DNA of 53,221 nucleotides from Deltaproteobacteria bacterium (GCA_030636245.1 DAOVXI010000001.1:1-53221), one strand, 5' to 3'. Shown: positions 3,001 through 38,310, counted from the first letter of the stretch. Notes: generated by a model not told the origin, from the letters alone. Numbers and translations: made by a program.

Positions 3001-3078
3001 TACCCCCAAAGCACTCAGCTTCTCTTCCGCCGCGGCCGGGTCCATATCTATAAGCTCTATGACATTATGTTCTTTCAT
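1..3078 (-). CDS. glnE: Glutamine synthetase adenylyltransferase/adenylyl-removing enzyme GlnE (3' end runs off the window)
   Basis: The minus-strand frame is open from the ATG (complement of 3076-3078) to position 1. It has no stop in the window, so it is absent from the supplied ORF track. My translation starts MKEHNVIELIDMDPAAAEEKLSALGVF. It contains two GlnE-type nucleotidyltransferase signatures: VKLGRGGIREIEFFVQVLQIIHGG (about 1850-1925) and DIKTGRGGIVDIEFMAQALLL (about 300-350). The + strand ORFs at 206-3199 are antisense shadows. Confidence 0.85.
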   Translation of the reverse strand, partial: MKEHNVIELIDMDPAAAEEKLSALGVFDPDSTLKSLKRLKNRVNENILKYVFELSVTSPEATSALTNFEHALDGVNGEELQNIIQNKEQRAVLFLILGSSNYLSTQITKNKGTLKYLFIEDALHKSVTYDEHLRSLQVLIKQDDTSEKASKELRQYRHKEYLRIGARDLTKRSNTRETVGEVSALADACLERAFEFSLHKNKERYGTPYYKDLDGNKKEGHFTVLGLGKLGGRELNYSSDIDLIYICKGAEGETSGKDPSGTGKIDNHSFFKRLAELFTKLINETTEVGNVFRVDLELRPEGKSGNLVNSIQSLEIYYESWGQSWERSAMIKARAVAGSKELGEEFHKMITPFVFRRYLDFTAIEELKKMKEKIDVYQKQIKPDTVDVKLGRGGIREIEFFVQVLQIIHGGKNKDLRMRGTMEAIKKLTAAGLISKEDELVFNQSYCFLRDLEHRLQIIEARQTQALPVKDKDMARIAKMMGFSEEKGCTNRFLKRYKEITENVHSIYHSLFYESEEELKGESTKELMDLLSEDFPDEEAFKVLDKMRVFEEKEAVLTSIRAISKMKYKRISETARMAIEKLSPLIISSCIISPIPRMALNNFSKFISSTGGRTGIYSMLKENPELVRFLSKIFGSSDFLSQTLIESPEGLDLLLTEEIETPVKNKDVMSKELEKKMKGAENYEDKLNILRQYKNLETFRIGSCDLMGSINVFTITEQMTALAETCLEQALFAAREELKEKYGEPEEKGFFIVGLGKLGGGELLYGSDLDIAFIYDKEGGSTKGGKKEIVDHEYYALLAQKIISTLSVRTRNGTAYEVDARLRPSGSAGALVVSSEAFLRYHRKSSEIWERQAMTRARFVSGDKLLGERVLKELQEIIYEKGLGTDEKAELLRIRDRMEKEIAKEGPQRIDIKTGRGGIVDIEFMAQALLLMNGKEKPKIRRQNTGQAIKELVKENIIEESDGKLLIDSYEFLRKLESGLRMVDNNAKSVISLDKAGGEGHFTHLSRLSGIESADKAKSAGEILLD

Positions 3079-3155
3079 TATTATTAATATATCACTTAAG
3101 AAGCTATTCGGGCAAATCTCTTTTTTTGTTTGGGGGTATAAAAGATATGGGAAAA

Positions 3156-3230
3156 TGGTGGGCGGTACTGGGTTCGAACCAGTGGCTTCCACCGTGTGAA
3201 GGTGACACTCTACCGCTGAGTTAACCGCCC
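3156..3230 (-). tRNA. tRNA-Val (anticodon CAC), CCA encoded
   Basis: The reverse complement is GGGCGGTTAACTCAGCGGTAGAGTGTCACCTTCACACGGTGGAAGCCACTGGTTCGAACCCAGTACCGCCCACCA. It folds by hand into a cloverleaf: 7-bp acceptor GGGCGGT/ACCGCCC, D stem ACTC/GAGT, anticodon stem TCACC/GGTGG with loop TTCACAC, and T stem ACTGG/CCAGT with the TTCGAAC loop. Confidence 0.9.
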
Positions 3231-3335
3231 CTGTGCAGCTCTGCTGCCAGTAAAATAATATAAGAAGTAGTTGTGAGTGTCAAGCACACATACGGCCTCG
3301 TTGCGAAACTTTATACGTGATGATATAATACCAAA

Positions 3336-3758
3336 GTGAAGTATCTGGGAATAGACCTTGGGAAGAAAAGGATCGGCATCGCCTTAAGTGACGATAGCGG
3401 TATTATAGCAGAGCCGTATATACAAATAGAACGGCGCTCAACAAACAGCGCCGTAGACGAGATCTTTGAGATCGTAAAAGAAAAAGAGGTCAACAGGATC
3501 GTTATTGGTCTGCCGCTTCTGGAGGATGGCAATGAGGGCTCCATGGCAAAGGATGTTCTAAAATTTAAGGAAGTACTCGAGACAAGGTGCGGCCTTCATG
3601 TTACCACCTGGGATGAGCGCTTTTCGACAAAGGCTGTTACAAGGGTTCTTATTGACGCGGATGTAAGCAGGAAAAAAAGAAAGAACTCGGTGGATAAACT
3701 TTCAGCTTCGTTTATACTTCAGGGATATCTCGACTATATAAAAAATGATCAAGCGTAA
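3336..3758 (+). CDS. ruvX: Holliday junction resolvase-like RuvX/YqgF
   Basis: N-terminus (M)KYLGIDLGKKRIGIALSD is the YqgF signature. Length 140 aa, GTG start. Overlaps mltG by 14 nt. Confidence 0.85.
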   Translation: MKYLGIDLGKKRIGIALSDDSGIIAEPYIQIERRSTNSAVDEIFEIVKEKEVNRIVIGLPLLEDGNEGSMAKDVLKFKEVLETRCGLHVTTWDERFSTKAVTRVLIDADVSRKKRKNSVDKLSASFILQGYLDYIKNDQA

Positions 3759-4773
3759 AACAATAGAAAAAATATTTTTGCTGACCACAACCATTGCGAT
3801 CCTTTTGGTCATGCATCTTCATAAACTCATGTACCTTCCGGCAGACCCGGCAGGGGCCCCTGTTATTGTTATGATTGAACGCGGGGACGCGTTTTCAACG
3901 ATAACGCAGAGGCTCTTTAAAAAAGGTGTTATTAATGACAAAAAAGGTTTTAAGCTCGCAGGCCTGATCAAGGGCGCCCATTCAAAGTTAAAGGTCGGTG
4001 CTTACGACCTCAGCTCCTCCATGACACCGGTTGAGATATTAAATGTTCTGGTAAGCGGAAAAACAAAGAAACATCGTGTAACCTTTCCCGAGGGTTATAC
4101 GATATGGGATATGGCGGCGCTGCTCTTAAATAAAAAATTACTTGATGAGCAAGGGAGCAAGAAGTTCATAAACCTCGCGATGGACCCAATTTTCTCAAAG
4201 GGGCTTGGCGTGGAAGGCGGCACCCTTGAAGGATTTCTTTTTCCAGATACATATGACTTTAATTATGGTGTTTCGGTAGAGGAAATTCTCAGGATACTGG
4301 TCTCACGCTTTAACGAGATCTACGATAAGGAGCTACGCTACCTCGAGCTGCCGCGCGGCTTTACCATAGGCGATATAGTAACGCTTGCATCTATTGTTCA
4401 GAAGGAGACGGGTGTGGTTGAGGAGATGGCGCTCATCTCCTCGGTTTTCCATAATAGACTTTTAAAGGGCTACAGGCTTCAAAGCGACCCGACGATAATT
4501 TACGGCATTATGCGTATCAGAGAGTTCAACGGGAACCTCACCAGAAAGGATCTTAAGGAAAAGACAGCTTATAATACCTATGTGATCTATGGGTTGCCCC
4601 CGGGTCCTGTGGCTAACCCCGGTAAGGACGCATTAATAGCCGCGTATCGTCCCGCAAATGAGAACTATCTGTACTTTGTCTCGAAGAATGATGGAACCCA
4701 TAAGTTCTCAAAGAACTTGGCGGAACATAATAAAGCCGTGCGGTTTTATCAAAAGGAATATTTTAGGAAGTAA
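3745..4773 (+). CDS. mltG: Endolytic murein transglycosylase MltG (YceG family)
   Basis: N-terminal membrane anchor. YceG-type core with LASIVQKETG, HNRL and QSDPT motifs. Length 342 aa. Confidence 0.85.
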   Translation: MIKRKTIEKIFLLTTTIAILLVMHLHKLMYLPADPAGAPVIVMIERGDAFSTITQRLFKKGVINDKKGFKLAGLIKGAHSKLKVGAYDLSSSMTPVEILNVLVSGKTKKHRVTFPEGYTIWDMAALLLNKKLLDEQGSKKFINLAMDPIFSKGLGVEGGTLEGFLFPDTYDFNYGVSVEEILRILVSRFNEIYDKELRYLELPRGFTIGDIVTLASIVQKETGVVEEMALISSVFHNRLLKGYRLQSDPTIIYGIMRIREFNGNLTRKDLKEKTAYNTYVIYGLPPGPVANPGKDALIAAYRPANENYLYFVSKNDGTHKFSKNLAEHNKAVRFYQKEYFRK

Positions 4774-4791
4774 AGCGACTGGTATCTTTTC

Positions 4792-5880
4792 TTATTTCTT
4801 TTTCTCTACACCGTATGGTGTGTACTTTTCTTTTAACCCGCTTGAGAGGTGAACCTTTTTTTTATCGTCAATAACCAAGCCCTCTACCTTGTCTAATCTT
4901 TCAATTAGTTTTATGCTTTTTTTTGCTCCAAGGACAAAAACAGCCGTGCTCACAGCGTCAGCAAGTGTCGGGTCACTGCTTATAATGGTTACCCCCATAG
5001 TGCCTAAAGCCGGGTAGCCTGTTGCCGGGTCTATTATGTGATGGTATCTTTTGCCCTCGAGCTCAAAGAATCTTTCGTAGTCACCCGAGGAGGCAACAGC
5101 CCCTCCGTCTATTAGTATGGTGCCTGTTATTCCTCTTTTGCTTCTCGGGTCCTGAACCCCAACGGTAAACGGCTCCGCATGTGTTGGGTCTTTATAAAGG
5201 GTCATGTCTCCACCGGCTTTTATTATCGCCCAGTCTACATCGTTTGCTTTTAAGACCTCAAGTGCCCTCTTAACGATGTATCCTTTTGCCACGCCACCGA
5301 GGTTCAACCTCATGCCTTTTTCCATGGAGACGGTGCCTTTTTCTTCATTTACCGTGATCTTCTTATATCCTATGTTTTTCTTGCCTTCTTTGATCTCGCT
5401 CTCGGTAGGCGGGGTTTTTTCTTCATCACTGTTTATGTTCCAGAGCTTTATTAGAGGGCCGGCACTTGGGTCAAAGGCTCCTCCTGAAAGTTCCGCGATC
5501 CTGAGCGCTACTTTTAAGACCTCCATGGTTTCTTTGCTAACCAAGACCTCTTTAACGCCAGAGTTTATCCTGGATACATCACTCTCTTTTTTGTAGCTAC
5601 TCAGGATGTTTTCAAGACGCTCTATTTCCAGAAATGCTTTTTCGGCAACCTCGCGAGCCTCCGCCTCGCTTAGCTTCTCCGTGCCCACGGCAATCTGTAC
5701 GAGGGTTCCCATGAGGATCTTGCTGGATGTGGCGGAATTGTTGTCTTTTCTTAGATCAAGGGAGATAAGGTAGCCGCCACAGATAAGCAAGACAGTGGCA
5801 ATGACAATGTAAATGGTTATTTGTTTGCGGTTTGAATGTTCGCTGTGAGCGGTGACGTAGGGCTTTTTACTGCTCTCCAT
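4792..5880 (-). CDS. apbE: FAD:protein FMN transferase, ApbE family (membrane-anchored)
   Basis: ApbE motifs GGVAKGY, SGDYERFFELEGKRYHHIIDPATG and a TxxxADALSTA-like segment (TLADAVSTAV). N-terminal hydrophobic anchor. Confidence 0.85.
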   Translation of the reverse strand: MESSKKPYVTAHSEHSNRKQITIYIVIATVLLICGGYLISLDLRKDNNSATSSKILMGTLVQIAVGTEKLSEAEAREVAEKAFLEIERLENILSSYKKESDVSRINSGVKEVLVSKETMEVLKVALRIAELSGGAFDPSAGPLIKLWNINSDEEKTPPTESEIKEGKKNIGYKKITVNEEKGTVSMEKGMRLNLGGVAKGYIVKRALEVLKANDVDWAIIKAGGDMTLYKDPTHAEPFTVGVQDPRSKRGITGTILIDGGAVASSGDYERFFELEGKRYHHIIDPATGYPALGTMGVTIISSDPTLADAVSTAVFVLGAKKSIKLIERLDKVEGLVIDDKKKVHLSSGLKEKYTPYGVEKKK

Positions 5881-5947
5881 TTGTTATTCCTGTTTGAGTG
5901 TTTAGTGGGTGCGGCGGGGTTGTATTAATGCGTAGTATTTATGGTGC

Positions 5948-6598
5948 TCAAAACTCTTCGTCATCTGCCTCTGATTTGTCCAGCATGCCGACAGGGGTCT
6001 CTTCTCTTCTGGCGGCGCCCCCGGTTCTTTCGGATTTGCTCTTACAGTCAACACAGAGGTTTGTGAAAGGAAGTGCCATGAGCCTGCTTTGACCGATCGG
6101 TTCACCGCAGTCATCACAATGTCCGTAGTCTTTGTCCGCAAGGTGCTCAAGCGCCTCTTCTATCTCGATTAGTCGATTGCGCTCCCTGTCCCCAAGCGTC
6201 AGTGTCAGCTCCCGCTCTCTTTCACTGCTTGCTATATCATATATATCGCCCATTTCGAACTTGCCTTCAGTGCTTTCGTTCTTGATCTTGTTTGACAGCT
6301 CTCCGAGGATACGCTTTTTATCTTCAAGCAGTTTACTCTTAAGCTGTTTTATGAAGGCGGCTTTGCCAAGGGGTTTTTGCTGGCTGATGTTGGATGGTGT
6401 AGACACTGCTTTTTTAACGGTCATCTTTTTAGGTGCCGCTTTTTTTGGAGCAGACTTCCGCGCTACAGCTTTTTTGCTTACGGTGGTTTTCTTTTTAACG
6501 CCTGTTGATTTCGTTTTTGCGGCCGTAGAGGTTTTTTTCTTAACAGCCGGCTTCTTTGCGCCGCTAACAGGCTTTTTCTTTGTAATTTTTTTAGTCAT
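5948..6598 (-). CDS. DksA/TraR-family C4 zinc-finger protein with Lys/Ala/Pro-rich histone-H1-like N-terminal tail
   Basis: The C-terminal part has the DksA coiled-coil region plus CDDCGEPIGQSRLMALPFTNLCVDC (CxxC-N17-CxxC). The first ~75 aa are KKPAVKKKTSTAAKTKSTGVKKK... low-complexity basic repeats. An acidic tail (DKSEADDEEF) ends the protein. Confidence 0.8.
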   Translation of the reverse strand: MTKKITKKKPVSGAKKPAVKKKTSTAAKTKSTGVKKKTTVSKKAVARKSAPKKAAPKKMTVKKAVSTPSNISQQKPLGKAAFIKQLKSKLLEDKKRILGELSNKIKNESTEGKFEMGDIYDIASSERERELTLTLGDRERNRLIEIEEALEHLADKDYGHCDDCGEPIGQSRLMALPFTNLCVDCKSKSERTGGAARREETPVGMLDKSEADDEEF

Positions 6599-6607
6599 GA
6601 GCTAAGA

Positions 6608-6635
6608 AGTATACAATATTTTTCGTTTTTGTCAA
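6608..6635 (-). promoter_or_regulatory. Sigma-70-type promoter TTGACA-16 nt-TATACT for the DksA-like gene, -10 ends 9 nt before the ATG
   Basis: On the minus strand, TTGACA is the complement of 6630-6635 and TATACT is the complement of 6608-6613. No Shine-Dalgarno is present between the -10 and the ATG at 6598. A 10-bp perfect inverted repeat, ACAATATTTT (6613-6622) / AAAATATTGT (6639-6648), brackets the -35. Confidence 0.5.
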
Positions 6636-6677
6636 AGCAAAATATTGTGTATCGATCGATATTTATTAATGTGTGGT

Positions 6678-6705
6678 TTGACATCTCAAGCCATTGTAAT
6701 ATAAA
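6678..6705 (+). promoter_or_regulatory. Putative sigma-70 promoter TTGACA-16 nt-TATAAA for mnmG
   Basis: TTGACA at 6678-6683 and TATAAA at 6700-6705. AGGAGAG RBS at 6726-6732, ahead of the ATG at 6734. Confidence 0.4.
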
Positions 6706-6733
6706 ATAAAGACTTTCCATTACCTCAGGAGAG

Positions 6734-8650
6734 ATGATAGTGAAGAGCACAAACAATAAATATGACATAATTGTAGTTGGCGCGGGCCATGCAGGCATTG
6801 AGGCTGCGCTTGCCGCCTCCAGGCTTGGCCAAAGATGTTGCGTTCTTACCATCTCTACCGCGACGATCGGGGAGATGTCCTGCAACCCTGCGATAGGTGG
6901 CGTTGCCAAGGGTCATCTGGTAAAGGAGATCGACGCACTTGGAGGGATGATGGCACAAGCCATAGATGCCACAGCCATACAGTTCCGTACCCTTAACCAG
7001 AGCAAAGGTCCTGCCGTTAGAAGTTCGCGGGCGCAGGCTGATCGACACGCTTATAGCGCCTACATGAGAGATGTTATTTTAGGAGACCCCAATATTGAGG
7101 TTGTTGAGGGTGTAGCAGCTTCAATTTTAACTGAAACGCACGATAAAGTGCCTGAAGTTGTTGGTTTACTCCTCGAAAACGACATTAAGTTGTATTCCAG
7201 AGCTGTTATTGTTACAACCGGCACTTTTTTAAGTGCTCTCATGCATACCGGTGATAAAACTACAGCCGGGGGCAGGGTCGGAGAGAGGGATGGCGGAGAT
7301 CTATCAAAAAGTCTTAAAGATCTAGGACTTACGCTCGGTAGGCTCAAAACCGGAACGCCGGCAAGGCTAAAAAGATCTACAATTGATTTTAGTAAAATGG
7401 AGGAGCAGGCGGGAGATCAACCAATAAAACCCTTTTCTTTTGTAAGCCAGCCAATTGAAAGGGAGCAGACAAGTTGCCACATAACCTATACAAATGAGTT
7501 AACTCACCGTATTATAAGCGAAAATATGGAGCGCTCCCCTCTTTACAGCGGAAAGATAAAGGGGATAGGACCAAGGTATTGCCCCTCAATAGAGGATAAA
7601 ATAGTTAAATTTCCCGATAGGTTACGTCACCAGATATTTATCGAGCCCGAGAGCCTTACAACAGACCATATATATCCCAATGGCCTCTCGACAAGCATGC
7701 CGGAGGATGTTCAGTTAAAATTCCTTAGAAGTATTAAGGGGTTAGAAGAAGTCGAGGTGGTTTGTTACGGATATGCCGTTGAGTATGACTATGTAGACCC
7801 CGTGGAGTTGTCCCCAACCCTTGAAACAAAGAAGGTCAGCGGCCTCTACACAGCGGGTCAGATAAACGGCACCTCCGGTTACGAGGAGGCCGCTAGCCAG
7901 GGTCTTATTGCCGGAGCAAATGCCGGGCTTAAGTTACTCGGCAAGCCCCCTCTGATACTTAAGAGATCGGATGCCTATATAGGTGTGCTCATTGACGACC
8001 TTGTGACAAAGGGCACTAAAGAGCCATATAGGCTCTTTACCTCGCGGGCTGAGTACAGGCTACTTCTGCGTGAGGATAATGCCGATAGGCGGCTAAGAGA
8101 CAGGGCTTATGCTTGCGGGCTAATAGATGATGAGGTCTATGAAAAGTATCTTCAAAAAAAGAAAAGCATAGAAGAAGGCATAGAGAGGCTCGCCTCTTTA
8201 AAGGTGCTGCCTACAAAAAAATTCTGTGAGAAGGTAGAGGCAAAGGGGCTTGGGACGGTAAAGAAGCAGACAACCTTAAAGGAGCTTTTGAGGCGACCGG
8301 AGGCAAGTATCGGAAAAATTATTGAGTTGGCAGAGGAGCTTGGCTACGATAATATGATATTTAGCGATGAGGTTGCAAACTCCATAGAGATTGAGGTAAA
8401 GTATGAAGGCTACATTGCCAGGCAGCTGGAGGAGATAGGAAGACACAAAAAAACAGAGGAAACGCTTATTCCGGATGGTTTTTCATTTGATGGGGTGCCG
8501 GGGCTTTCTCGTGAGGTTGTTGAAAAGCTATCAAACGTGCGGCCGCTCTGTATAGCCCAGGCAGGTAGAATTCCCGGCGTAACACCGGCCGCCATAAGTA
8601 TGCTCATGGTAATATTAAAAAAACAAGAAGGAGGCACGATAAATGGATAG
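6734..8650 (+). CDS. mnmG: tRNA uridine-5-carboxymethylaminomethyl synthesis enzyme MnmG (GidA)
   Basis: [19 protein letters not shown]-binding N-terminus, [11 protein letters not shown] motif, 638 aa. Confidence 0.95.
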
Positions 8651-9281
8651 CGCAGAAAAAAGTCAGCTTGTTGAAGGAGCTAAATTGTTTGGGGTAGAGC
8701 TGACAGATAAAATGATAGAGCAGTTTTCGATCTATATGGAAGAGCTTGAAAAATGGAACAAGGCTATAAACCTGACCAGTGTTAAGGGTGAAGACACTGT
8801 GGTACGCCACTTTATAGACTCTATGATCCCCTTAAAGTCCATAAAACCGGGAGATAAGGTTCTGGATATAGGCACGGGAGCCGGCTTTCCGGGGCTTGTT
8901 CTAAAGATCGTTGAACCGAGCCTTGAGGTGACCCTTTTGGACTCGGTCGAGAAGAAAACCCATTTCATAAAGGACGTTGTCAGAAAATGCGGACTTGAGG
9001 GTGTAACCATAGAGGCAGGCAGGGTCGAGGATGACTCTACAAAAGAAAAATTGGGCAGGGTCTTTGACTGCACCGTTTCCAGAGCATTCGCCGTTCTGGA
9101 TGATTTTTATAAGGCTTCAAAGGATTATGTTAAAAAGGGCGGAAAGGTAATAGCACTTAAGGGTCCGGTCACGGGGGCGCTTATGGAAGAGCTTGAGAAA
9201 ACATCCGTTCGCTATGACGTTACTGATGTGGAGGTGCCGGGTTCTCTGCGAAAAGCCACGCTTGTTGTAAGGAGTCGCTGA
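8643..9281 (+). CDS. rsmG: 16S rRNA (guanine527-N7)-methyltransferase RsmG (GidB)
   Basis: Follows mnmG with an 8-nt overlap. SAM motif [13 protein letters not shown]. Length 212 aa. Confidence 0.9.
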
Positions 9282-9282
9282 T

Positions 9283-9298
9283 TGTTCCACGTGGAACA
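9283..9298. promoter_or_regulatory. parS centromere-like site 1 (TGTTCCACGTGGAACA, perfect palindrome)
   Basis: Matches the chromosomal parS consensus TGTTNCACGTGAAACA. Lies directly after the rsmG stop and upstream of parAB. Confidence 0.85.
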
Positions 9299-9320
9299 AT
9301 GGGTAGGGTGTCTTTTAGGA

Positions 9321-12479: not shown

Positions 12480-13394
12480 GTGAATAAAGCAGATAAGATA
12501 TGGCTTGATGGAGCGCTTGTTGACTGGAATGATGCGAATGTGCACATACTAACGCATTCGCTTCATTATGGACTTGGAGCCTTTGAGGGAATAAGGTGCT
12601 ATAAATGCGACGATGGCAAAAGTGCTATTTTTCGTTTAAAGGAACATACGAAAAGATTTTTTCAAAGCGCGCATATCCTTCAGATGGAGATGCCTTTTTC
12701 CGAGGATGATATAAACGCGGCCATCAAAGAAACACTTAAGGCAAACAAGCTTGAAGAGGGCTATATACGGCCCATTGTTTTTCTGGGTGACGGATCAATG
12801 GGGCTTTATCCCAAGGGTAATCCTACACGTGTGGCGATAGCCACATGGGAGTGGGGCGCATATCTTGGCGACGATGGAATAAAGAACGGCATAAGGGCAA
12901 AGGTTTCTTCATTTACTCGTCATCATGTCAATGTTAGTATGACAAAGGCCAAGGCCTGTGGTTATTATGTTAACTCAATACTCGCCAAGCGTGAGGTCGT
13001 AAAGGCAGGCTATGATGAGGCAATAATGCTTGATACCGAGGGCTATGTATCTGAAGCGAGCGGAGCTAATATCTTTATCTATCGTAACGGTGTACTCAAG
13101 ACAACACCTTTAACAAGTATTCTGGACGGGATAACAAGGGCAACCGTCATAGAGCTTGCAAAGGATAGTGGTATTGAGGTTCGTGAAGAGCGCTTTACGC
13201 GCGATGAGCTCTACATAGCCGATGAGGCATTTTTTACCGGTACCGCCGCGGAGATAACACCTATTAGAGAAGTTGATGATAGGGTAATAGGTCAGGGACG
13301 GCCCGGTCCAATAACAGAAAAAATACAAACTCTTTTCTTTGACATAGTAAAGGGAAAAAACGACACCTATAGCCGTTGGCTTGATATCGTTTAA
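12480..13394 (+). CDS. ilvE: Branched-chain amino acid aminotransferase (class IV)
   Basis: Class IV aminotransferase motifs: [38 protein letters not shown] start preceded by GAGGAG. Confidence 0.9.
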
Positions 13395-13431
13395 GGTTAT
13401 TGGCCAAGCCATTTTGGCTTAGCCAATAACT
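13395..13431 (+). terminator. Strong hairpin after ilvE (15-bp stem, one mismatch, loop ATTTT)
   Basis: GGTTATTGGCCAAGCC-ATTTT-GGCTTAGCCAATAAC, paired by hand. A T-run (CATTTTT) follows only after 8 nt, so intrinsic-terminator function is probable but not certain. Confidence 0.5.
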
Positions 13432-13640
13432 TCATGCATTTTTCTCCGCACTGACTTCTGAAGCACATCACCATTTCGGTCTATCCATTTAATTTTCCAG
13501 ACATTTTTTTCTTGTAATAGATTGTCGATTTTAGTAACATCTGTTAGTTAGGTATAAATAGGGGATTATTGTCTGAATGACGATAAGTTTATACCGTGTT
13601 AACTAATCCTCACGGCAACAATTACGGTGGGGGAGGGAAA

Positions 13641-15314
13641 ATGTCTGCAGAAGGTTTTTTTGGCCCAAGCGAAAGCAATCTTGTAGACCTCATTCAGATG
13701 TGGGGTCTTGCAAAGACCAGTGGCATTCTTACCGTTAAAAGCGGCAAGGAAGATGGAGAGATGCATTTCGAGGAAGGCCGTGTCGTCTGGGCAAACGCAG
13801 GACCTTATCTTTCCGGAGAGGATGCCATATACCACCTTTTGGCCCTGGAAGAGGGCCGTTTCCGTTTCGTAAACTCCCGCGAATTAAAACATAACGGTGA
13901 ACTTAACTGCTCCTATAGCGAGATCATTATGGAGGGCATGCGTCGGCTTGACCATCTTAAGTTAGAGATGCAGGGCGTAGATGAAAAGCTTGGGTTTATA
14001 CCGTTCATTAAGGGTGTCCCCGGAAGCACAAATGGCGGCTCTGCAGAGGTAAGTGATGAGGAAAAGGTCTTCATGGCCTTGGTCGACGGGAAAAGGAACC
14101 TTGAAAAGGTTTTTGATAACTGCGGCCTTGGAGCGCACAAAAGCTTTAAGGTCTTTAAGGCGCTTTGTGACAAGGAGCTGGTTGAGCTCAGAAAAGTTCG
14201 AGTGCTTGTTGTGGACGATCAATCAATGTGGCGTAACGTCATAAGTAATATGCTTCTTAAAGAACCTTGTTTTGAGGTAATCGCTACCGCGGAGGATGGG
14301 GTTGATGCGCTTCAGAAGATAAGCGAGCTTAAGCCGGATGTCATAACGTTGGATCTTGAGATGCCGCGTCTTGACGGAATAAAAACACTTTATTGGATGA
14401 TGAGCGGTGGCTACGATATACTTTTAAAGTCACAGCATAATGTTGAGATAAAAGACACCTTCAGATGTCCGGTCGTTGTTATAAGTGCTGTTGCAACCAA
14501 GATGGCGCCGGAAACCCTCGAGGCGCTAATGGGCGGTGCAACAGGGTACATAACAAAACCTTCACAGTTCGTAAGTGAAAGCCTTGAGCAGCAGCAAAAA
14601 ACCATAGCTAAAACCGTCCTCATGGCAAGCCAGGTGGATCTTCAGAAATCAAGAAGGATTAAGGCTCTTGATATAGACTCAAAGGATATTGAAAACCTTA
14701 AACCCGCAAGGAAGCTTGTTTGCGTGGGCGCTTCCATGGTTGGAGGGCTGACATCCCTTATGCAGCTCATCCCACAGTTTCCGGAAAACCTTGACGGCTC
14801 TGTTTTTGTAGTAGTAGACGATCTTTATTCAATAGAACATACTAAAAGTTTTGCCGAGTTCCTTGACCGTCACAGCAAGATAAAGGTAGAGGCGGCGGAC
14901 AAAAACAATATACTTAAAAGCGGTACGGTTTATATTTCAAGTGCGGACAATGCCGTTGAATTCGGGCAAGCAAATGTAGATGGACTTGTGCAGGCCGCTT
15001 ACAGGATAACCTCTAAAAGGCAGGGCGAGGAGTTGGACAAGAACTTTAAGCCTTTGGATACAATGCTTGAGAGCGCAATTAAGTGTAAGGGTTTTGATAA
15101 AAGGATAGGTGTTGTGCTTGCCGGCGATGGCACGGACGGAAAGATCGGGTTCTTGGAGATGGTAAAGGTGGATGACAAGGTTTTTGCCCAGGACTCTTAT
15201 TCATCACTTAACCCTATTAAACCGGAGAACGTTGCCAATACCGGTGTTGCGAGGGTAATACCCCTTGCGGCAATGGTAAAAAGTATCATTATGGAAGTTG
15301 GGAGGAGCGTTTAG
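13641..15314 (+). CDS. PATAN(DUF4388)-REC-CheB-like (methylesterase-fold, probably inactive) fusion protein
   Basis: The N-terminus NLVDLIQMWGLAKTSGILTVK...GEMHFEEGRVVWA...GEDAIYHLLALEEGRFRF matches the DUF4388/PATAN pattern. The middle part VRVLVVDDQSMWRN...KPDVITLDLEMPRLDG is a CheB-type receiver. The C-terminal part LVCVGASMVGG...VFVVVDDLY...VLAGDGTDG is colinear with the CheB methylesterase. I prefer the ATG at 13641, preceded by GGGGGAGGG, over the GTG at 13596. Confidence 0.75.
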   Translation: MSAEGFFGPSESNLVDLIQMWGLAKTSGILTVKSGKEDGEMHFEEGRVVWANAGPYLSGEDAIYHLLALEEGRFRFVNSRELKHNGELNCSYSEIIMEGMRRLDHLKLEMQGVDEKLGFIPFIKGVPGSTNGGSAEVSDEEKVFMALVDGKRNLEKVFDNCGLGAHKSFKVFKALCDKELVELRKVRVLVVDDQSMWRNVISNMLLKEPCFEVIATAEDGVDALQKISELKPDVITLDLEMPRLDGIKTLYWMMSGGYDILLKSQHNVEIKDTFRCPVVVISAVATKMAPETLEALMGGATGYITKPSQFVSESLEQQQKTIAKTVLMASQVDLQKSRRIKALDIDSKDIENLKPARKLVCVGASMVGGLTSLMQLIPQFPENLDGSVFVVVDDLYSIEHTKSFAEFLDRHSKIKVEAADKNNILKSGTVYISSADNAVEFGQANVDGLVQAAYRITSKRQGEELDKNFKPLDTMLESAIKCKGFDKRIGVVLAGDGTDGKIGFLEMVKVDDKVFAQDSYSSLNPIKPENVANTGVARVIPLAAMVKSIIMEVGRSV

Positions 15315-17948
15315 TTGAGCGAAGATCTTTTCGGATACTCTGTTGAGGAATTCAAGGAGGAGGCAAAAGAGCTCCTTGAAAGAAGCGAAGGTATTATTGC
15401 CAAGATCGCTGAGGACCCGAGTGACAATGAACACGTGAACGCACTTTTCCGTGCCATACATTCGCTTAAAGGTAGCTCCGGTTATGTTGGTCAGAATGAT
15501 ATAAATAATTTTGCTCATGGCTTTGAGAGTCTTTTGGGCATACTCAGAAATAAAAAACAAGAGGTGACCGACGAGGTTGTTAATGTCATTCAGCGTTCAT
15601 GCGATTACCTTGAGGATCTTGTTTTCCATCCTGAAACAACCGAAGTGCTTCATCTTGATGAATCAATTACCGATGTATATGAAATGGTAAAAGGTGCCTT
15701 TAAGGGCCGCACCGGGGCGCAGCCACAAGCGGCCGCACCAGAGCCGGTACAGGCACCATCCCCGACGCCTCCTATCCAGGAAGCTCAGCCTCAGGAGGGT
15801 TTGAGCGAGGAGCCTGTGTCAACACAGGTTGAAGCGCCGGTAGCCGAAGCGCCACAGGTTACCGAGGTGGCAAAACCAGAGATCATGCATTCAGAGGAAG
15901 AGCATGCCCGTCCGCCTGAAGAGCTTACAGCTGCTGACAGCCCTGAGGACTTTGTCTTTACCGAAGAGGCCCCAGACGCAGAGCCGGTAGATCACTCGGA
16001 CATGGATCAGGGCGATGTTATAAAGATAACCCTCACGCAGTCGCTTGAGGCGCTTAAGAATGCGCTTAGAGAAGATCGCCCTAACAAAGATGATGTTGAG
16101 AAGTATATAGGCAAACTTAGAGATACGGTAAGCTGGGCCTTTGGTGATGATATGCCAACGACGACCATTGCTCTTGAGGAGATGGAGTCACTCGTTTTAG
16201 GCACAGATGTGCTTGGAGCGCGGGAGCTTACCATGCTGAGGAAGGGCTTTGTTATGATGGCCCCGGAGATCATGAGAGAACTCGGTATTGACGTAGGGGG
16301 TCCGAGCAGCTCTGTTAAAAAAGAAGAAGAGGTAGAAGACAGCAGTGAAGCCGAACAGATGCGAGGAGCCTCAAGGGAAGATATCGTAAAGATAGCGCTT
16401 ACGAATAACCTCGAAGCACTTACCTTATACCTTGAAGAGGAAAACCTTAATGTTCAAGAGTTGCATAAGGCAATTGGAAAACTTCATGATCTAAACAGAT
16501 GGGCCTTCAATGAAAATGCTGAAGCATCAATGTCGCTTATTGCGATGGAGGACCTTCTTAAAAGAGTTGATGACCCGGAAAGTAACAAAGAGATCAGGAT
16601 AAGGGGTTCGCTGCTTAAAAAAGAATTAATGCCTTTGATAGAAACAAGCCTTGTTTCCGATAGAGCCGAGGTGGGCACAGAGTATCACGAGCCTGTTGCT
16701 GTTGCACCTGTTCCGAAGGAAAAAGAAATAGAGTCACCCTTAATTAGAGTGCCGGTCGACTCTGCGCCTACTACGCCGCCGCCTGCTCTAGATCAAGAAG
16801 AGAGACCTGCTCCCATACAAAAGGGTCGCAGAGTTGTTGCAAAAAAAGCAAGTCCTCAAAGTGCGGCGAGTCTTAAGATACGTTCCGAGGACCTGGAAAA
16901 CCTTATCGGTACCGTCGGAACTTTAAAGGGGATCAAAGAAGAAGATTTTCAGAAACTTCAGGCCGCTACACTTCAGCTAAGAATGATCCCGGTCGGAGAG
17001 ATCTTCAGCCGTTTTAAGAAAGTTGTAAGGGATCTATCCGAAGAGCTGGGTAAGCCCATGCGTCTGGAGCTTTCAGGAGAGTCGGTTAAACTTGATAAAG
17101 CCATAGCGGACAAACTGACAGAGCCACTTATGCACATGGTTAGGAATGCGGCAAGTCATGGCATAGAAAGTGAGGCGGAACGCTCGGCGCTTGGCAAGGG
17201 CCCAGCGATAATAAAGTTAAGCGCGGCTCAGGAAGGTGGACAGGTCGTAATACAGGTGGCTGACAACGGCAAGGGAATAAGCCTTGCAAAGGTCCGGGGA
17301 AAAGGTATTAAGCTTGGACTTATAAAGGAAGAAGATTCCGTTGGAATGACCGAGAAGAAGATACTTGACCTTATTTTCTCGCCGGGGTTCTCTACACATG
17401 AAGGGGCTGACAAGATATCCGGACGTGGTGTTGGTATGGATGTTGTAAAAGATGCGATAACCTCCATTCAAGGGGTCGTTTCCATAGATACACGCGAGAA
17501 CTTCGGAACAACATTTAACCTTCAACTCCCGCTAACCCTTGCTATAATAAGAGGCCTGGTCCTTCAGCAAAGCGATTCCAAAATAGCCGTTCCTGCGGCT
17601 TCTGTTGACAGGGTAATGAATATGATGGCAAAGGAGATCGAAGAGGCAAGCTTTATGGATAAGAACAGGGTTTGTCTTTATTTACAGGAAGAGGGAGAGG
17701 TTATGCCTATAGTTAACTTCTCAGAGGTTTTTGGTTTCGAACCTTCTTCTGATAAAAGATGCGTTGTTTTGATAAGGATAGGCGGGGGGCATAAGGTGGC
17801 TTTGATAGTTGATGAAGCGCTTGGTCGTCAGCCGCTTACCATTAAACCGTTGGATAAGTTTTCTGAGACAAAATACTTCTCAAGTGCTTCAATGATAGAA
17901 GAGGATGTAGTGCTTATACTTAATATACCTAGCTTGTTGGCTGCGTAA
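15315..17948 (+). CDS. cheA: CheA-like histidine kinase (HPt - Pro/Glu-rich linker - two ~60-aa repeats - dimerisation - HATPase - CheW-like)
   Basis: HPt motif FRAIHSLKGSSGYVG. N box HMVRNAASHGIE, G1 DNGKGI, G2 GRGVGMDVV. C-terminal CheW-like domain. The TTG start directly abuts the upstream TAG and is preceded by GGGAGGAG. Confidence 0.9.
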   Translation: MSEDLFGYSVEEFKEEAKELLERSEGIIAKIAEDPSDNEHVNALFRAIHSLKGSSGYVGQNDINNFAHGFESLLGILRNKKQEVTDEVVNVIQRSCDYLEDLVFHPETTEVLHLDESITDVYEMVKGAFKGRTGAQPQAAAPEPVQAPSPTPPIQEAQPQEGLSEEPVSTQVEAPVAEAPQVTEVAKPEIMHSEEEHARPPEELTAADSPEDFVFTEEAPDAEPVDHSDMDQGDVIKITLTQSLEALKNALREDRPNKDDVEKYIGKLRDTVSWAFGDDMPTTTIALEEMESLVLGTDVLGARELTMLRKGFVMMAPEIMRELGIDVGGPSSSVKKEEEVEDSSEAEQMRGASREDIVKIALTNNLEALTLYLEEENLNVQELHKAIGKLHDLNRWAFNENAEASMSLIAMEDLLKRVDDPESNKEIRIRGSLLKKELMPLIETSLVSDRAEVGTEYHEPVAVAPVPKEKEIESPLIRVPVDSAPTTPPPALDQEERPAPIQKGRRVVAKKASPQSAASLKIRSEDLENLIGTVGTLKGIKEEDFQKLQAATLQLRMIPVGEIFSRFKKVVRDLSEELGKPMRLELSGESVKLDKAIADKLTEPLMHMVRNAASHGIESEAERSALGKGPAIIKLSAAQEGGQVVIQVADNGKGISLAKVRGKGIKLGLIKEEDSVGMTEKKILDLIFSPGFSTHEGADKISGRGVGMDVVKDAITSIQGVVSIDTRENFGTTFNLQLPLTLAIIRGLVLQQSDSKIAVPAASVDRVMNMMAKEIEEASFMDKNRVCLYLQEEGEVMPIVNFSEVFGFEPSSDKRCVVLIRIGGGHKVALIVDEALGRQPLTIKPLDKFSETKYFSSASMIEEDVVLILNIPSLLAA

Positions 17949-17986
17949 CTTAGAACGTTAATCTTAATTATCTTAAGGAGGAAGTG

Positions 17987-18373
17987 ATGTCGGATAAAAA
18001 AAAGGTTTTGGCCTTGGATGATCAGAAGTCGATGCAGAACATATTGAATTTTTCACTGAAAAAAGAGTTTGATGTAACAATTGTTGGTACTTCTGACGAT
18101 GCGATAAGTAAGGCAAAAGGAGAGAGCTTTGATTTTATTCTCCTGGACATTGTTCTTGATAATGACACAAGGGACGGGATAGGGGTTGCCCAAGAGCTTC
18201 AGGGAGCAGGCATAAACACACCGGTTGCGTTCTTGTCATCGCTTACTCAGGACAGCCTTGCGGATGACCAGAAGGAAAGGGCATCAGGGTTAAACAACAT
18301 AAAGTTCTATCAAACCAAACCGATACAACCTGATGACCTTGTAAAAAAGATATACGGTGTTGTGGGAGAATAG
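17987..18373 (+). CDS. cheY: Single-domain response regulator (CheY-like)
   Basis: VLALDDQ ... FDFILLDIVL ... FLSS ... TKP supply the receiver acidic pocket, phospho-Asp, Ser/Thr and Lys positions. RBS AAGGAGGA lies upstream of the ATG at 17987. Confidence 0.85.
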   Translation: MSDKKKVLALDDQKSMQNILNFSLKKEFDVTIVGTSDDAISKAKGESFDFILLDIVLDNDTRDGIGVAQELQGAGINTPVAFLSSLTQDSLADDQKERASGLNNIKFYQTKPIQPDDLVKKIYGVVGE

Positions 18374-18427
18374 GCAGCCGGTCAATTAGACGGTTACTTT
18401 ATAAAAGTTAATTTAGCGAATAAGATT

Positions 18428-18934
18428 ATGGCAAAGATAAAGATCCTTACATTTTTAATAAACGACAGATACTTTGCGTTGCCCTCGGCCAGCATCAAGG
18501 AGATCCTTGACTCCGAGAAGAGCATCAAGCAGATATTTTATAATAGGGGCGGAGCCTTAAGGGGTTTGCTTGTTTATGAAGGGGATATGATATCTGTGCT
18601 TGATACAGAGATACTTCTTGATATTGCAAGCAACGGCAATGGTAACGGTAAGGGTACGGCCCTTGGGATGGATAAGCTTGTACTTATCTGTAAGGACAGG
18701 GAGCTTGAAAGAGCCATAGCGATAGTTATAAATTCGATCGATTGCATGGAAACCATTGAAGAAGAAGAACTTAAACTCTCGCAGGATGAGAGTGCAACAT
18801 ATACGAGAGGTTTTATTAAAGAAGGTAAGGGTGAAGAGCAAAGGGTTGTAACGGTACTTGATCTTAAAAAGTTTCTCGAATACTCCGGCAAAAGAATAGA
18901 GTCGCTGGAGAGTGGGGAAAGAGTAATAAATTAA
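18428..18934 (+). CDS. cheW: CheW-like coupling protein
   Basis: Length 168 aa. ILTFLINDRYFALPSASIKEIL is the typical CheW N-terminal beta-strand pattern. Cluster context supports the call. Confidence 0.75.
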   Translation: MAKIKILTFLINDRYFALPSASIKEILDSEKSIKQIFYNRGGALRGLLVYEGDMISVLDTEILLDIASNGNGNGKGTALGMDKLVLICKDRELERAIAIVINSIDCMETIEEEELKLSQDESATYTRGFIKEGKGEEQRVVTVLDLKKFLEYSGKRIESLESGERVIN

Positions 18935-18959
18935 AAAACCAGACTTAAGGAGAGTCGGC

Positions 18960-20963
18960 ATGAAAAAATCGATCGGAAATACCATCGGTGAAATTTTTAA
19001 ACTCAACCTGAGAAAGATAACGCGAAATTTTTATGTGCTCACGGTTGCATCAGTTGTTGTCGGGTTGATTATTTACGTTGAGGTTAGTTCCATTTGGAGT
19101 AAGGTTGAAGCCGTTAAGGATGGTTCTCTTCCGCTGCTCATACAATCGCAGAAAACAGATAACGCGCTTGGTGATACAAAACTTGTTATTGAAAAACTTT
19201 ATGATGCGACGGAGCCGGGGGTTAGGGATATTCTCCTTTTAACAATTCAGGAGACTAACAAGGTTTATAAATTGGAGCTTAATAAACTGGTTGTTATGCT
19301 TTCCTCGGAGTCAGCACAAGCGATTAAGACAAAGCTTCAAAAAGTATCTAGTACATATATTCAACTTTTTGAGAAAGGCATACCGGATACCGCCGCTGCA
19401 TACAATAATTTGGCGAATGTTAAGGGTGCGCTTATGGAGGTTAACACATATACACTTGAGACGATCGCCACTGACTTTAATGCATCACAGGCCGCGAAAA
19501 ATAACGCTACCATTGTTATCGTCTTTACTATTCTTGCAGCCATCGGTGGAATGATCATAACAAGTCTTGTTCTTACCGGAGTTGTCAGTCAGCCGGTTAC
19601 GAATGTTGCCGACTCGCTTGCCAAAAACACCCTTGATATAGAAAGCGTGCTTGGTGAGATAAGTGAAGGTGCAAAGGCACAAACAGAGATCGTCAAGAAC
19701 GCCACAAAGGATCTTGAGGATATGATAATTAATATTATTCAGGGTAGCATTACCTTGAGCGTTGAAAAGCAGTCTGAGATATCAGGTGTTTTTGCAGAGT
19801 TTTTAAGACAGTTCGTTGAAAGGACATCTGCTGAGATCGCCATGGGTATGATGACCGTTTCACAACAGTCACAGGAAGCTCGTAGCGAGATGGATAAGTT
19901 TGTTAAAGAGCTTGCCAATGTTGAGGGTAACATTAAGGACCAGGAGACAGCTGTTCTTGGTATGGTTGACGCGGTCAGATTGATCGCATCATCCAATGAA
20001 GATATTAAGAAGAAAACAATCACCTCAACAGAGGTTGCTGATAAAGCCACAAGGATGGCCGCGGAGGGTCAGGAGAGAATTGGTGTTATCTCTGAGGAAC
20101 TTCAGGATGTACGTAAATCCTCAGAGGGTGTTGCCGAGATAACCGAGTCACTCGCGAAGATTACGGAAAACATTAAAATACTCGCACTTAACATGAGTCT
20201 AAAGGTCGAAGATATTCGAGATGATACGGGTAAGTCATACGGGTTTGAGGCCATGAGTGCCAGGGTTCAGGAGCTAGCCGAAGAGGTTGAAGGCTTGCTC
20301 GAGAACTCTAAAGAGATGATTTTGCCTACCATTAAAGCTATTACAAAAGTTAGTGGCGATGCGGAACAGGCAAAAGAGCTTATCACAGAGGTTGCAAGAT
20401 CAATTAAAGAAGCTGATGAAGAAAGTAAAGCTATCGCAATTGAGATCGATACTCAGAGTGTTGAGATCTCAAGGGTTGAAAAGTCTGCACAGGGATTGAG
20501 TGAGTTGGCCAAGAAATCAACGGAAACAATTAGTGAGCAGACAAAGCTAGTTAAAGATGTTGATGAAATGCTTGGAGAATCGGTTACGCTGGTTGACAGT
20601 GTTAGTGCGCAGACCAACGAAGCGAACGAAGCCGCTCGAAAAGTTAATGACATGATGGAGGAGCTTAAGGCCTCAATGAGCAGCATTGAGGAGGGCACAG
20701 GACTATTGACCGAAAAAAGTGTTGAGCTTTCCGAGATATTTGAGACCATTAGTGTTCAGTCCGCAAAGAACCTTGACGGAGCTGAAAGACTTGAGGTCGT
20801 CTCTAACGCTGTTAGGGATGTTGCCGGAAGACTATCATATGTTGTTCAGGGCGGAAAAGGAGAGGGCAACGGAGCGGCACAGGCCCGGGGAAAGGGTAGC
20901 CAGGAGCAGGTAGTGGAAGATGTGGCCGCCGCCGGGTCAAAGGAAACACCGCCGGTTGCCTGA
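18960..20963 (+). CDS. Methyl-accepting chemotaxis protein-like transducer with divergent signalling tip
   Basis: Two TM segments (FYVLTVASVVVGLIIYV; IVIVFTILAAIGGMIITSLVLTG) flank a ~150-aa extracytoplasmic region. A long coiled coil follows, containing ...ITENIKILALNMSLKVEDIRDDTGKSYGFEAMSARVQELAEE, a degenerate version of the MCP hairpin core. Confidence 0.7.
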   Translation: MKKSIGNTIGEIFKLNLRKITRNFYVLTVASVVVGLIIYVEVSSIWSKVEAVKDGSLPLLIQSQKTDNALGDTKLVIEKLYDATEPGVRDILLLTIQETNKVYKLELNKLVVMLSSESAQAIKTKLQKVSSTYIQLFEKGIPDTAAAYNNLANVKGALMEVNTYTLETIATDFNASQAAKNNATIVIVFTILAAIGGMIITSLVLTGVVSQPVTNVADSLAKNTLDIESVLGEISEGAKAQTEIVKNATKDLEDMIINIIQGSITLSVEKQSEISGVFAEFLRQFVERTSAEIAMGMMTVSQQSQEARSEMDKFVKELANVEGNIKDQETAVLGMVDAVRLIASSNEDIKKKTITSTEVADKATRMAAEGQERIGVISEELQDVRKSSEGVAEITESLAKITENIKILALNMSLKVEDIRDDTGKSYGFEAMSARVQELAEEVEGLLENSKEMILPTIKAITKVSGDAEQAKELITEVARSIKEADEESKAIAIEIDTQSVEISRVEKSAQGLSELAKKSTETISEQTKLVKDVDEMLGESVTLVDSVSAQTNEANEAARKVNDMMEELKASMSSIEEGTGLLTEKSVELSEIFETISVQSAKNLDGAERLEVVSNAVRDVAGRLSYVVQGGKGEGNGAAQARGKGSQEQVVEDVAAAGSKETPPVA

Positions 20964-21025
20964 TAAGACGGCCAACGTAGTATTTATGCGGGAGCTGTTC
21001 GAGCAGTAGTATTATAATAATAACG

Positions 21026-21055
21026 GGCCGCGTAAGCGGCCTTTATTGTATTTTT
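21026..21055 (+). terminator. Rho-independent terminator closing the chemosensory operon
   Basis: GGCCGC-GTAA-GCGGCC followed by TTTATTGTATTTTT. Confidence 0.7.
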
Positions 21056-37427: not shown

Positions 37428-37431
37428 TGGA

Positions 37432-38310
37432 ATGACGTTAGAGGCAATAAAAGCATATCCTGATGGTGAAGAGATAACCCTTAAAACTAAAGCAATATTG
37501 GAGCCGCTCTTTAAAGAGGACCAAAGCTCGGTGTCAGAGTTTACCTTTGCGAATATTTATCTATTCAGAAAAAAACACGGCTACCTTTTAAGCAAGCTTT
37601 CTGACAACACACTCGCCATAAGCGGGAGCGAAGCCGGTAAGGCTTTTTTGCTGCTGCCATTCGGTTTGCCAGAGGCCGCTGTGCTGGTGGATATATTAAA
37701 AGCCGGTGTTACTTTGAAATGCATAACCGAAGAAGATGTAAAGGCCTTGGAAGGATTGGGGGTTAAGATACAAGAAGACAGGGATAACTTTGATTATATT
37801 TATTTAAGAGAAGAACTTTCGGAGCTTAAGGGCGGAAAGTTCTTAAAGAAACGGAACAGGGCTAGCGCCTTTACTTCCAAGTATAACGCAGAGGCAGTGA
37901 AGCTTGACGAGGATCGTCTTGATGATGCCTTAACGGTATTAGATAAGTGGCATGAAGATAGGCTTAATGCCGGGAAAGACGATGGCGATTATCATGAAAC
38001 AAAAGAAGCGCTTCACTCGATGAAGGAGCTCGGGCTTATGGGGTGCATATATTACGCCGACAAATTGGCCGTGGCCTTTGAGATAGGCGAGGCCCTTGGA
38101 CGAAGCGACACATTCGCCGTACACTTTGAAAAGGGATTGACCGAATACTCCGGGGTTCTTCAGTATGTTGTAAAATCATTTGCCTCGCTTATGCCAAGTA
38201 GCTTTAAGTATATAAATCGGGAACAGGATCTCGGTATCCCGTCACTTAGGCGTGCCAAGGAATTGTTAAGACCAATAAAATTCATAAAAAAGTACAGGGT
38301 GAGTCTTTGA
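37432..38310 (+). CDS. DUF2156-like protein (MprF C-terminal/aminoacyl-tRNA-transferase-type acyl-CoA N-acyltransferase fold)
   Basis: About 290 aa. SEFTFANIYLFRKKHGY...GGKFLKKRNRASAF...YYADKLAVAFEIGE... resembles standalone DUF2156 proteins. The assignment is from memory of the family pattern only. Confidence 0.45.
   Translation: MTLEAIKAYPDGEEITLKTKAILEPLFKEDQSSVSEFTFANIYLFRKKHGYLLSKLSDNTLAISGSEAGKAFLLLPFGLPEAAVLVDILKAGVTLKCITEEDVKALEGLGVKIQEDRDNFDYIYLREELSELKGGKFLKKRNRASAFTSKYNAEAVKLDEDRLDDALTVLDKWHEDRLNAGKDDGDYHETKEALHSMKELGLMGCIYYADKLAVAFEIGEALGRSDTFAVHFEKGLTEYSGVLQYVVKSFASLMPSSFKYINREQDLGIPSLRRAKELLRPIKFIKKYRVSL

Follow-up and report, generated by a model that had tools for sequence, protein, structure and literature searches.

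How a chemosensory pathway might work when its CheB-like protein lacks the usual catalytic histidine and no CheR gene lies nearby is the question raised by a five-gene cassette in a Deltaproteobacteria bacterium assembly (GCA_030636245.1). The stretch of DNA analysed, hereafter the window, is 53,221 nucleotides (nt) long (DAOVXI010000001.1:1-53221), and its positions 13596-20963 hold five co-directional + strand open reading frames (ORFs), which encode a PATAN-REC-CheB-like regulator (REC, receiver), CheA, CheY, CheW and a divergent methyl-accepting chemotaxis protein (MCP). In the textbook account, sensory adaptation in bacteria depends on receptor methylation that CheR and CheB make reversible. 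The cassette is an uncharacterised variant within the known chemosensory systems, and we read it, with a probability of roughly 0.55, as a self-contained, vertically conserved pathway of an uncultured Thermodesulfobacteriota/'Deltaproteobacteria' lineage that most likely does without reversible methylation of the CheR/CheB type. Methylation independence, which a first-pass annotation of the window had proposed, is the best reading because CheR is absent from the window and from the neighbourhoods of related loci, the catalytic triad of the CheB-like domain departs from the canonical one, and conserved methylation motifs are missing from the MCP. Everything beyond the domain content is inferred from the genomes of uncultured organisms. 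The five genes are:

13641..15314, + strand: gene 1, PATAN(DUF4388)-REC-CheB-like regulator, 557 amino acids (aa) from the ATG at 13641; the ORF opens at the GTG at 13596
15315..17948, + strand: gene 2, CheA, 877 aa; its TTG start abuts the stop of gene 1
17987..18373, + strand: gene 3, single-domain CheY-like receiver (Pfam Response_reg); ORF call from 17984
18428..18934, + strand: gene 4, CheW coupling protein (Pfam CheW, E 6e-15), in the same position in all complete loci
18960..20963, + strand: gene 5, divergent transmembrane (TM) MCP, with TM1 at 19029-19097 and TM2 at 19506-19586

The PATAN-REC-CheB-like regulator and its relatives

Gene 1 most likely starts at the ATG at 13641 and not at 13596, the start given by the first-pass annotation: a GGAGG lies 7 nt upstream of this ATG, 20 of 20 orthologs begin with MSAEG or MSVEG, and the homolog P0001 is 557 aa long. 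Residue numbers for gene 1 follow the 572-aa numbering from the GTG at 13596. The domain order that had been proposed was recovered with Pfam, which placed DUF4388/PATAN at residues 26-121 (E 9e-17), Response_reg at 203-324 (E 9e-18) and CheB_methylest at 375-564 (E 1e-27). In window coordinates the domains and key codons are:

13671-13958, + strand: PATAN domain
14202-14567, + strand: REC domain
14718-15287, + strand: CheB-like domain
14352-14354, + strand: codon for D253
14733-14735, + strand: codon for S380
14823-14825, + strand: codon for L410
14838-14840, + strand: codon for H415
15135-15137, + strand: codon for D514

The receiver has a complete phospho-acceptor pocket (DD207-208, the phospho-acceptor D253 and K321, all invariant in the clade alignment) and bears a conserved insert of ~20 aa. 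The protein shares an N-terminal PATAN domain and a phosphorylatable REC with PatA-type regulators; it departs from their two-domain form in having a CheB-like domain of 200 aa after the REC, in 44 of 44 clade members. An AlphaFold2 model of the gene 1 product (mean pLDDT 72.9; high confidence for REC and CheB-like domain, low for PATAN) matched the full-length CheB structures 6ymz and 1a2o in Foldseek with TM-scores of 0.82-0.87 (E 1e-25). A search by sequence for a solved PATAN structure found none. Gene 1 scored 206 bits against the NCBIfam CheB model (cut-off 293), and the alignments of gene 2 to NCBIfam CheA models, spanning residues 528-874, also fell well under the model cut-offs; both proteins therefore lie inside these families and are divergent members of them. 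Mean pairwise identity across the clade is 0.67 for PATAN, 0.78 for REC and 0.59 for the CheB-like domain, which has 39 invariant columns, and all three domains are under constraint.

We aligned the CheB-like domain to Salmonella CheB (1A2O) and seven canonical CheBs. The canonical catalytic triad (Ser164-His190-Asp286) is not preserved: Ser164 and Asp286 have their counterparts in S380 and D514, and His190 is replaced by L410, with a leucine at this position in at least 90% of 21 clade members. A single residue is inserted right after S380 (GAS-M-VGG, compared with the canonical GASTGG) and two more are inserted ahead of the His190 position. An invariant histidine, H415, sits five residues past L410, at the start of the next helix. 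Gene 1 therefore resembles canonical CheB (Salmonella 1A2O/1CHD, Pectobacterium 6YMZ) in its preceding receiver with an intact pocket, in its catalytic-domain fold and in the Ser164 and Asp286 equivalents, and differs from it in the added N-terminal PATAN domain, the change of His190 to Leu, the insertions, the REC insert and the lack of a CheR partner in the DNA searched.

Our search also identified a wider lineage of non-canonical CheBs, with the pattern GAS-EGGY ... V[IL]Y (with Tyr or His where His190 would be) ... H[VI][DE]AF ... LSGxGxDG, to which P0277, P0308, P0317, P0343, P0259, P0314, P0315, P0358 and L014:1824-2864 belong. We considered Y411 as the counterpart of the tyrosine that replaces His190 in this lineage and rejected it, Y411 being unconserved in the studied clade. 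The lineage shares with the clade the histidine at +5, and its catalytic serine is often Ala or Gly, although some members keep it. Since the +5 histidine is retained even where the serine is often lost, it is not obviously part of a Ser-hydrolase triad.

We did not find cheR, cheD, cheC/X/Z, cheV, flagellar or pilus genes in the annotated window, in which every ORF and every gap of at least 150 nt was examined and, outside the cassette, proved to be housekeeping sequence; the earlier statement that cheR, cheD, cheC/Z, flagellar and pilus genes are absent from the 53 kb is thus correct. No CheR was found within ±10 kb of the cassette in five Pfam-annotated neighbourhoods of relatives (L009, L011, L017, L018 and L019), and a tblastn search with a CheR against ~175 kb (the window and the clade loci, including ~120 kb of relatives' flanks) gave no match. 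On the receptor side, no site matching [ASTG]xx[EQ][EQ]xx[ASTG], a consensus derived from model organisms, is conserved among six MCP orthologs.

The fusion of PATAN, REC and CheB-like domains also occurs elsewhere: within the 150 top-ranked representatives, at least 18 further clusters at 50% identity combine DUF4388, REC and CheB_methylest, most of them with an extra N-terminal REC. The catalytic serine is lost in 18 of 18 of these clusters (to Gly, Ala, Asp or Pro), many also lack the aspartate, and the canonical histidine is missing in all eight of the other-cluster members aligned residue by residue. The other clusters (P0046/L014, P0245/L016, P0366 and 15 more) have the same backbone, can be aligned end to end at 26-30% identity and lie inside che clusters. 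The PATAN-REC-CheB-like protein thus appears to be a recurrent fusion of single origin, and the triad losses in the 18 other clusters suggest that its CheB fold is generally non-catalytic. The studied clade is a distinct branch of these fusions: unlike most of the others it has no extra REC, and it keeps both Ser and Asp. Its loci differ as well, those of the other clusters containing ordinary-looking REC-CheB genes, a ParA/MinD-like ATPase, PilZ, standard HAMP-MCPs and a CheA that has no additional modules and whose dimerisation domain is recognisable. PATAN proteins have been reported to vary in architecture outside cyanobacteria (Han et al., bioRxiv 10.1101/2021.06.11.447907). Our literature search found no description of PATAN with CheB, of DUF4388 with a methylesterase or of a triad-less CheB, so the view that the domain combination is undescribed agrees with the papers found, and only its uniqueness to this locus falls.

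The loci of three of the other fusions are of one kind. At L014:824-13848, L016:10001-22001 and on the P0366 contig we observed a che cluster composed of (REC-)PATAN-REC-pseudoCheB, CheW, HAMP-MCP, CheY, CheA, one or two extra REC-CheB proteins and a ParA/MinD-like ATPase. The ATPase often has an N-terminal zinc ribbon, and PilZ is present in L014 and L016. There is no cheR inside these clusters; L016 has a separate cheR-containing cluster ~8 kb upstream. This type of che cluster is recurrent and apparently undescribed.

CheA, the coupled proteins and known systems

The CheA of the cassette is built, in order, of an Hpt domain, an acidic and Pro-rich linker, two modules that we call A and B, a short P3, a HATPase_c domain and a CheW-like P5, with Pfam matches to Hpt (residues 10-100), HATPase_c (603-741) and CheW (748-876). 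In window coordinates these are:

15342-15614, + strand: Hpt domain (H49 codon at 15459-15461)
16008-16280, + strand: module A
16374-16646, + strand: module B
17121-17537, + strand: HATPase_c domain
17556-17942, + strand: CheW-like P5 domain

Eight CheA orthologs share H49 and the N, G1, F and G2 boxes without variation, and judging from these residues the kinase should be active. Searching seven orthologs with Pfam at E<=10 revealed no P2/CheY-binding domain and only one Hpt, and the short P3/H-kinase_dim also went undetected. The duplicated module noted in the first-pass annotation was confirmed: residues ~232-300 and ~354-430 are 40% identical (E 6e-13), and across the eight orthologs the two modules match each other with an hhalign probability of 96.9%. 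Each contains an invariant W-x-F and neither has a conserved histidine. Neither found a match by sequence in Pfam or in a PDB profile search. The CheA P2 domain is alpha/beta. Modules A and B occupy the P2 position and are each predicted, in a single-sequence AlphaFold2 model (pLDDT 72.6), to form an all-helical, four-helix bundle, which sets them apart from P2; in Foldseek they retrieved generic four-helix bundles and weakly matching Hpt proteins (E 0.24-0.4, TM-score 0.39-0.47). An Hpt origin of the modules was considered and is not supported by sequence, with hhalign probabilities below 3% against the clade's own Hpt and against a profile of 18 diverse Hpt sequences, and no Hpt match in Pfam at E<=10. 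The CheAs encoded in the distant PATAN-CheB clusters L014 and L016 do not have the modules. The lack of P2, which had been taken as unusual, is ordinary, since more than 50% of CheAs have none (Berry et al., PMC10782961).

For CheY, ortholog alignment backs the ATG at 17987 as the most likely start. Residues D12, D13, D55, Y109 and K112 are invariant in seven orthologs and correspond to D12, D13, D57, Y106 and K109 of E. coli CheY, and the clade has a specific insertion after beta-4. The MCP has two TM segments, a small and variable periplasmic domain and a long cytoplasmic coiled coil. Its cytoplasmic region of 423 residues would fit ~60H, or 40H plus extensions. The signalling tip is far from canonical, as first noticed from the sequence: MCPsignal scores 28.4 bits on gene 5, under the Pfam gathering score of 34.6, and the best match to an MCP in the PDB has an E-value of 0.44. 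The tip nonetheless keeps an ILALN...E...G..YGFEA skeleton, and the MCP ortholog of L011, with 56% identity in its cytoplasmic portion, combines a PilJ-type sensor with a confident MCPsignal match. The general features of a chemosensory system are therefore present, with a CheA that combines a phosphorylatable Hpt histidine and a kinase core, a CheW, and an MCP with a signalling hairpin. The conserved tip lies at:

20172-20255, + strand: MCP hairpin tip, IKILALNMSLKVEDI(R/K)DDTGK(S/T)YGFEAMS, invariant in the clade (six orthologs)

The window MCP ends in a Gly/Ala/Glu-rich tail of ~35 aa (20853-20963, residues 632-667) that is missing from all five orthologs compared, and no NWETF-like pentapeptide was found in it. 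An unsupported antisense ORF of 149 aa (18557-19006, - strand), which lies opposite cheW and the beginning of the MCP gene, encodes a hydrophobic, low-complexity sequence and is most likely spurious.

Among known systems, the closest parallel in layout is with the cyanobacterial Tax/Pix systems of the type IV pilus (Tfp) class, such as Synechocystis PixG (PATAN-REC), PixH (CheY), PixI (CheW), PixJ (MCP) and PixL (CheA). In both, the first gene is a PATAN-REC and the second regulator a single-domain CheY, and in both there is one MCP, one CheW, one CheA and no CheR (bioRxiv 10.1101/2021.06.11.447907; PMC11181946). PATAN-REC proteins of Synechocystis bind the type IV pilus (T4P) motor (bioRxiv 10.1101/2021.06.11.447907). 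Tax systems, however, lack CheB entirely, while the PATAN-REC of the cassette continues into a CheB-like domain; the cassette's CheA has a single recognisable Hpt and no C-terminal receiver; the MCP is not a photoreceptor; and the gene order is different, the host is of the Desulfobacterota type and no pil genes are linked. The hallmarks of the Tfp class are thus missing, with one recognisable Hpt, no C-terminal REC and no pil genes either in the window or in the ±10 kb around the cassette in relatives; among multi-Hpt CheAs of the Tfp class, 94% have a C-terminal receiver (PMC10782961). The non-flagellar, Tfp-like assignment proposed in the first-pass annotation is a conjecture by analogy with cyanobacterial PatA-type regulators.

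The modules also recall the extra helical bundles between P1 and P3 of multi-Hpt CheAs, which likewise have no P2 and can lack the phospho-histidine, as in P. aeruginosa ChpA, R. sphaeroides CheA3 and class F4; His-less Hpt domains exist in ChpA and CheA3 (PMC10782961). In contrast to these, modules A and B are not recognisable as Hpt and carry their own W-x-F signature, and the protein ends without the C-terminal receiver present in more than 90% of multi-Hpt CheAs. Outside the clade, the closest CheA cores belong to generic CheAs (~40% identity) and say nothing about class. We also compared the Geobacter alpha and beta che clusters (PMC2577667) and rejected them as the same system, as they include CheR and no MCP.

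Transcription unit, neighbourhood and distribution

The ORFs called on the + strand are 13596-15314, 15315-17948, 17984-18373, 18428-18934 and 18960-20963, and the genes are separated by 0, 38, 54 and 25 nt, where the value of 38 requires the CheY start at 17987. Three elements bound or precede the cassette:

13394..13432, + strand: upstream hairpin, 17-bp interrupted stem, free energy (dG) -23.8 kcal/mol, z -5.8; 0 of 200 shuffles fold equally well
13512..13540, + strand: putative promoter-like element, -35 TTGTAA at 13512-13517, 17-nt spacer, -10 TAACAT at 13535-13540
21025..21055, + strand: downstream hairpin and T tract, 7-bp stem (6 GC pairs) then TTATTGTATT; intrinsic-terminator-like, closes the operon

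The upstream hairpin abuts the stop codon of a class-IV aminotransferase gene, and is most likely the terminator of the aminotransferase operon and the upstream boundary of the cassette. The downstream hairpin (21025-21042), with its T tract, has a dG of -21.3 kcal/mol and a z of -4.9, far stronger than shuffled sequence; because its stem is palindromic, it could act on either strand. The initial description of five tightly packed co-directional genes between two hairpins was therefore accurate, both in the ORF calls and gaps and in folding compared with shuffles. A simple sigma-70 consensus scan of the spacer at 13432-13640 scored no promoter, and the promoter-like element emerged only from cross-locus alignment, in which a CTTGTAA(A)AG block with a downstream TAnnAT-like box lies 5' of gene 1 in seven of eight loci despite differing upstream genes. 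Given this conservation, the five genes look like an autonomous transcription unit.

Gene 1 has ~44 close homologs with the same three domains at 58-73% identity, all from metagenomes or metagenome-assembled genomes labelled Deltaproteobacteria or Thermodesulfobacteriota; beyond them, scores drop steeply to ordinary CheBs. In an exhaustive search the whole clade formed a single cluster at 50% identity. The complete five-gene order is found in nine loci (the window, L003, L004, L006, L009, L011, L017, L018 and L019). In the window, the gene order is glnE, ruvX, mltG, apbE, dksA, gidAB, parAB, bactofilin, L,D-transpeptidase (LDT), class-IV aminotransferase, the che cassette, dcd, ftsK, lolA ... 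thiG, with three tRNAs, the genes outside the cassette being housekeeping genes.

Other observations concern the surroundings. Positions 1-9300 look origin-proximal, with dksA, gidA, gidB, parA and parB and a GC skew that is negative over 0-2 kb, about zero over 2-8 kb and positive from ~8 kb. A REC-GAF-GGDEF diguanylate cyclase (48678-50213, + strand), 28 kb from the cassette and adjoining a tRNA-Thr, is conceivably a further receiver fed by CheA; we found no evidence of a link. A protein of 327 aa (31566-32549, + strand) matches GINT1_N (glucosamine inositolphosphorylceramide transferase 1 N-terminal domain, E 3e-66), a domain that Pfam links to sphingolipid glycosylation and that one would not expect in a genome of the Desulfobacterota type. 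At 36000-38310 (+ strand), a gene for an NFACT/RqcH-like protein (475 aa) overlaps by ~60 nt with an LPG_synthase_C gene (phosphatidylglycerol lysyltransferase C-terminal-like), an unusual pairing.

A possible mechanism, its alternatives and its meaning

With the catalytic residues intact, signalling would run from the receptor to the phosphorylation of both receivers. The receptor would control CheA autophosphorylation, and CheA~P would divide its phosphate between CheY and the REC of gene 1, in the manner of the PixG/PixH and PilG/PilH two-regulator designs, with modules A and B at the P2 position serving as receiver-docking or pseudo-Hpt elements. The PATAN-REC-CheB-like protein would act not as a classical methylesterase but as an adaptor switched by phosphorylation: the CheB-like domain, in which the catalytic His position is lost, could dock on the receptor or provide binding-based feedback, and PATAN could contact a downstream machine. 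By analogy, our leading guess for the output is a polar or envelope machine such as the motor of the type IV pilus. The roles of the CheB-like domain and of the CheA modules, like the identity of the output, are what we infer from these comparisons. A more specific proposal, which we put forward only tentatively, is that PATAN-REC-CheB-like proteins are a chemosensory component of an undescribed kind. Their CheB fold would have lost its enzymatic role in adaptation and, gated by phosphorylation, would bind the receptor or array without catalysis, physically coupled through PATAN to a cellular machine. In this clade it would have co-evolved with a CheA in which two novel four-helix docking modules replaced P2, one for each insert-bearing receiver, and adaptation or output would proceed by stoichiometric binding, not methylation.

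Several points count against a methylation-free pathway of this kind, or limit it. S380, H415 and D514 are all invariant in 21-45 clade members, so the CheB-like domain may be a hydrolase with a relocated histidine; a cheR could sit elsewhere in the genome, of which 53 kb is visible, together with the flanks of relatives; the methylation-site consensus comes from model organisms, and the module folds from a single-sequence model; and none of the loci has linked pil, fla or other output genes, the proposed output being pure analogy. Taken together, some of these points would fit ordinary methylation-based chemotaxis, with an active methylesterase/deamidase using H415 and a cognate CheR encoded elsewhere. 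Orphan cheR genes are common in genomes with multiple che systems, the fold is fully CheB-like, and the +5 histidine recurs in the non-canonical CheB lineage, in some members alongside the serine. In that same lineage, however, the histidine stays while the serine is often replaced, and the residue inserted right after S380, the lack of CheR in the ~175 kb searched and the absence of a conserved methylation motif in the MCP all speak against an active esterase, which we regard as rather unlikely.

Much the same holds for a degenerate system of the flagellar class F4, in which CheY would control a flagellar motor and the PATAN-CheB-like protein would be accessory. All class F4 CheAs carry three Hpt domains (PMC10782961), and F4 systems, whose MCPs are 40H-type, are reported in Desulfobacterota (PMC12926219); the lineage is Thermodesulfobacteriota, an Hpt followed by two predicted four-helix bundles fits the F4 topology, and the weak Foldseek matches to Hpt proteins point the same way, so that if the cassette is a degenerate F4 its output may be flagellar. 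Yet seven of seven orthologs have one Pfam Hpt even at the permissive threshold, the diverse Hpt profile does not recover the modules, neither module has a conserved histidine, and no flagellar genes lie near any locus; we consider this origin unlikely, though still a specific lead. Coupling to the adjacent parAB-bactofilin-LDT genes, with a chromosome-segregation, polarity or envelope output, is very improbable. It is favoured by the parA-parB-bactofilin-(LDT)-aminotransferase IV block that immediately precedes the cassette in the window, L002, L018 and L019, including a relative 63% identical in gene 1. This synteny is nevertheless seen in only four of ~10 loci, and in L003, L004, L006/L009 and L011 the intact cassette lies amid unrelated housekeeping genes, for which reason we take the shared order to be inherited synteny near the origin, not a sign of functional linkage; vertical inheritance of the region (gidAB ... 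dcd-ftsK) would explain it, and the strong terminator hairpin and the conserved promoter-like motif separate the cassette from the upstream operon. The suggestion that this neighbourhood hints at the output is accordingly not supported.

Chemosensory pathways vary widely, and atypical ones whose output is not known are frequent. Within this diversity, the studied clade and the at least 18 other clusters form a family in which a conserved CheB fold without the canonical triad is fused to PATAN. Should the CheB-like domain be a binding module, an adaptation enzyme would have been recycled as a pseudoenzyme adaptor, PATAN-based signalling would extend beyond cyanobacteria, and the family would offer a handle on how methylation-free chemosensory pathways reset and deliver their output. 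With one receptor, one kinase and two receivers, the cassette is a compact and tractable unit for reconstitution.

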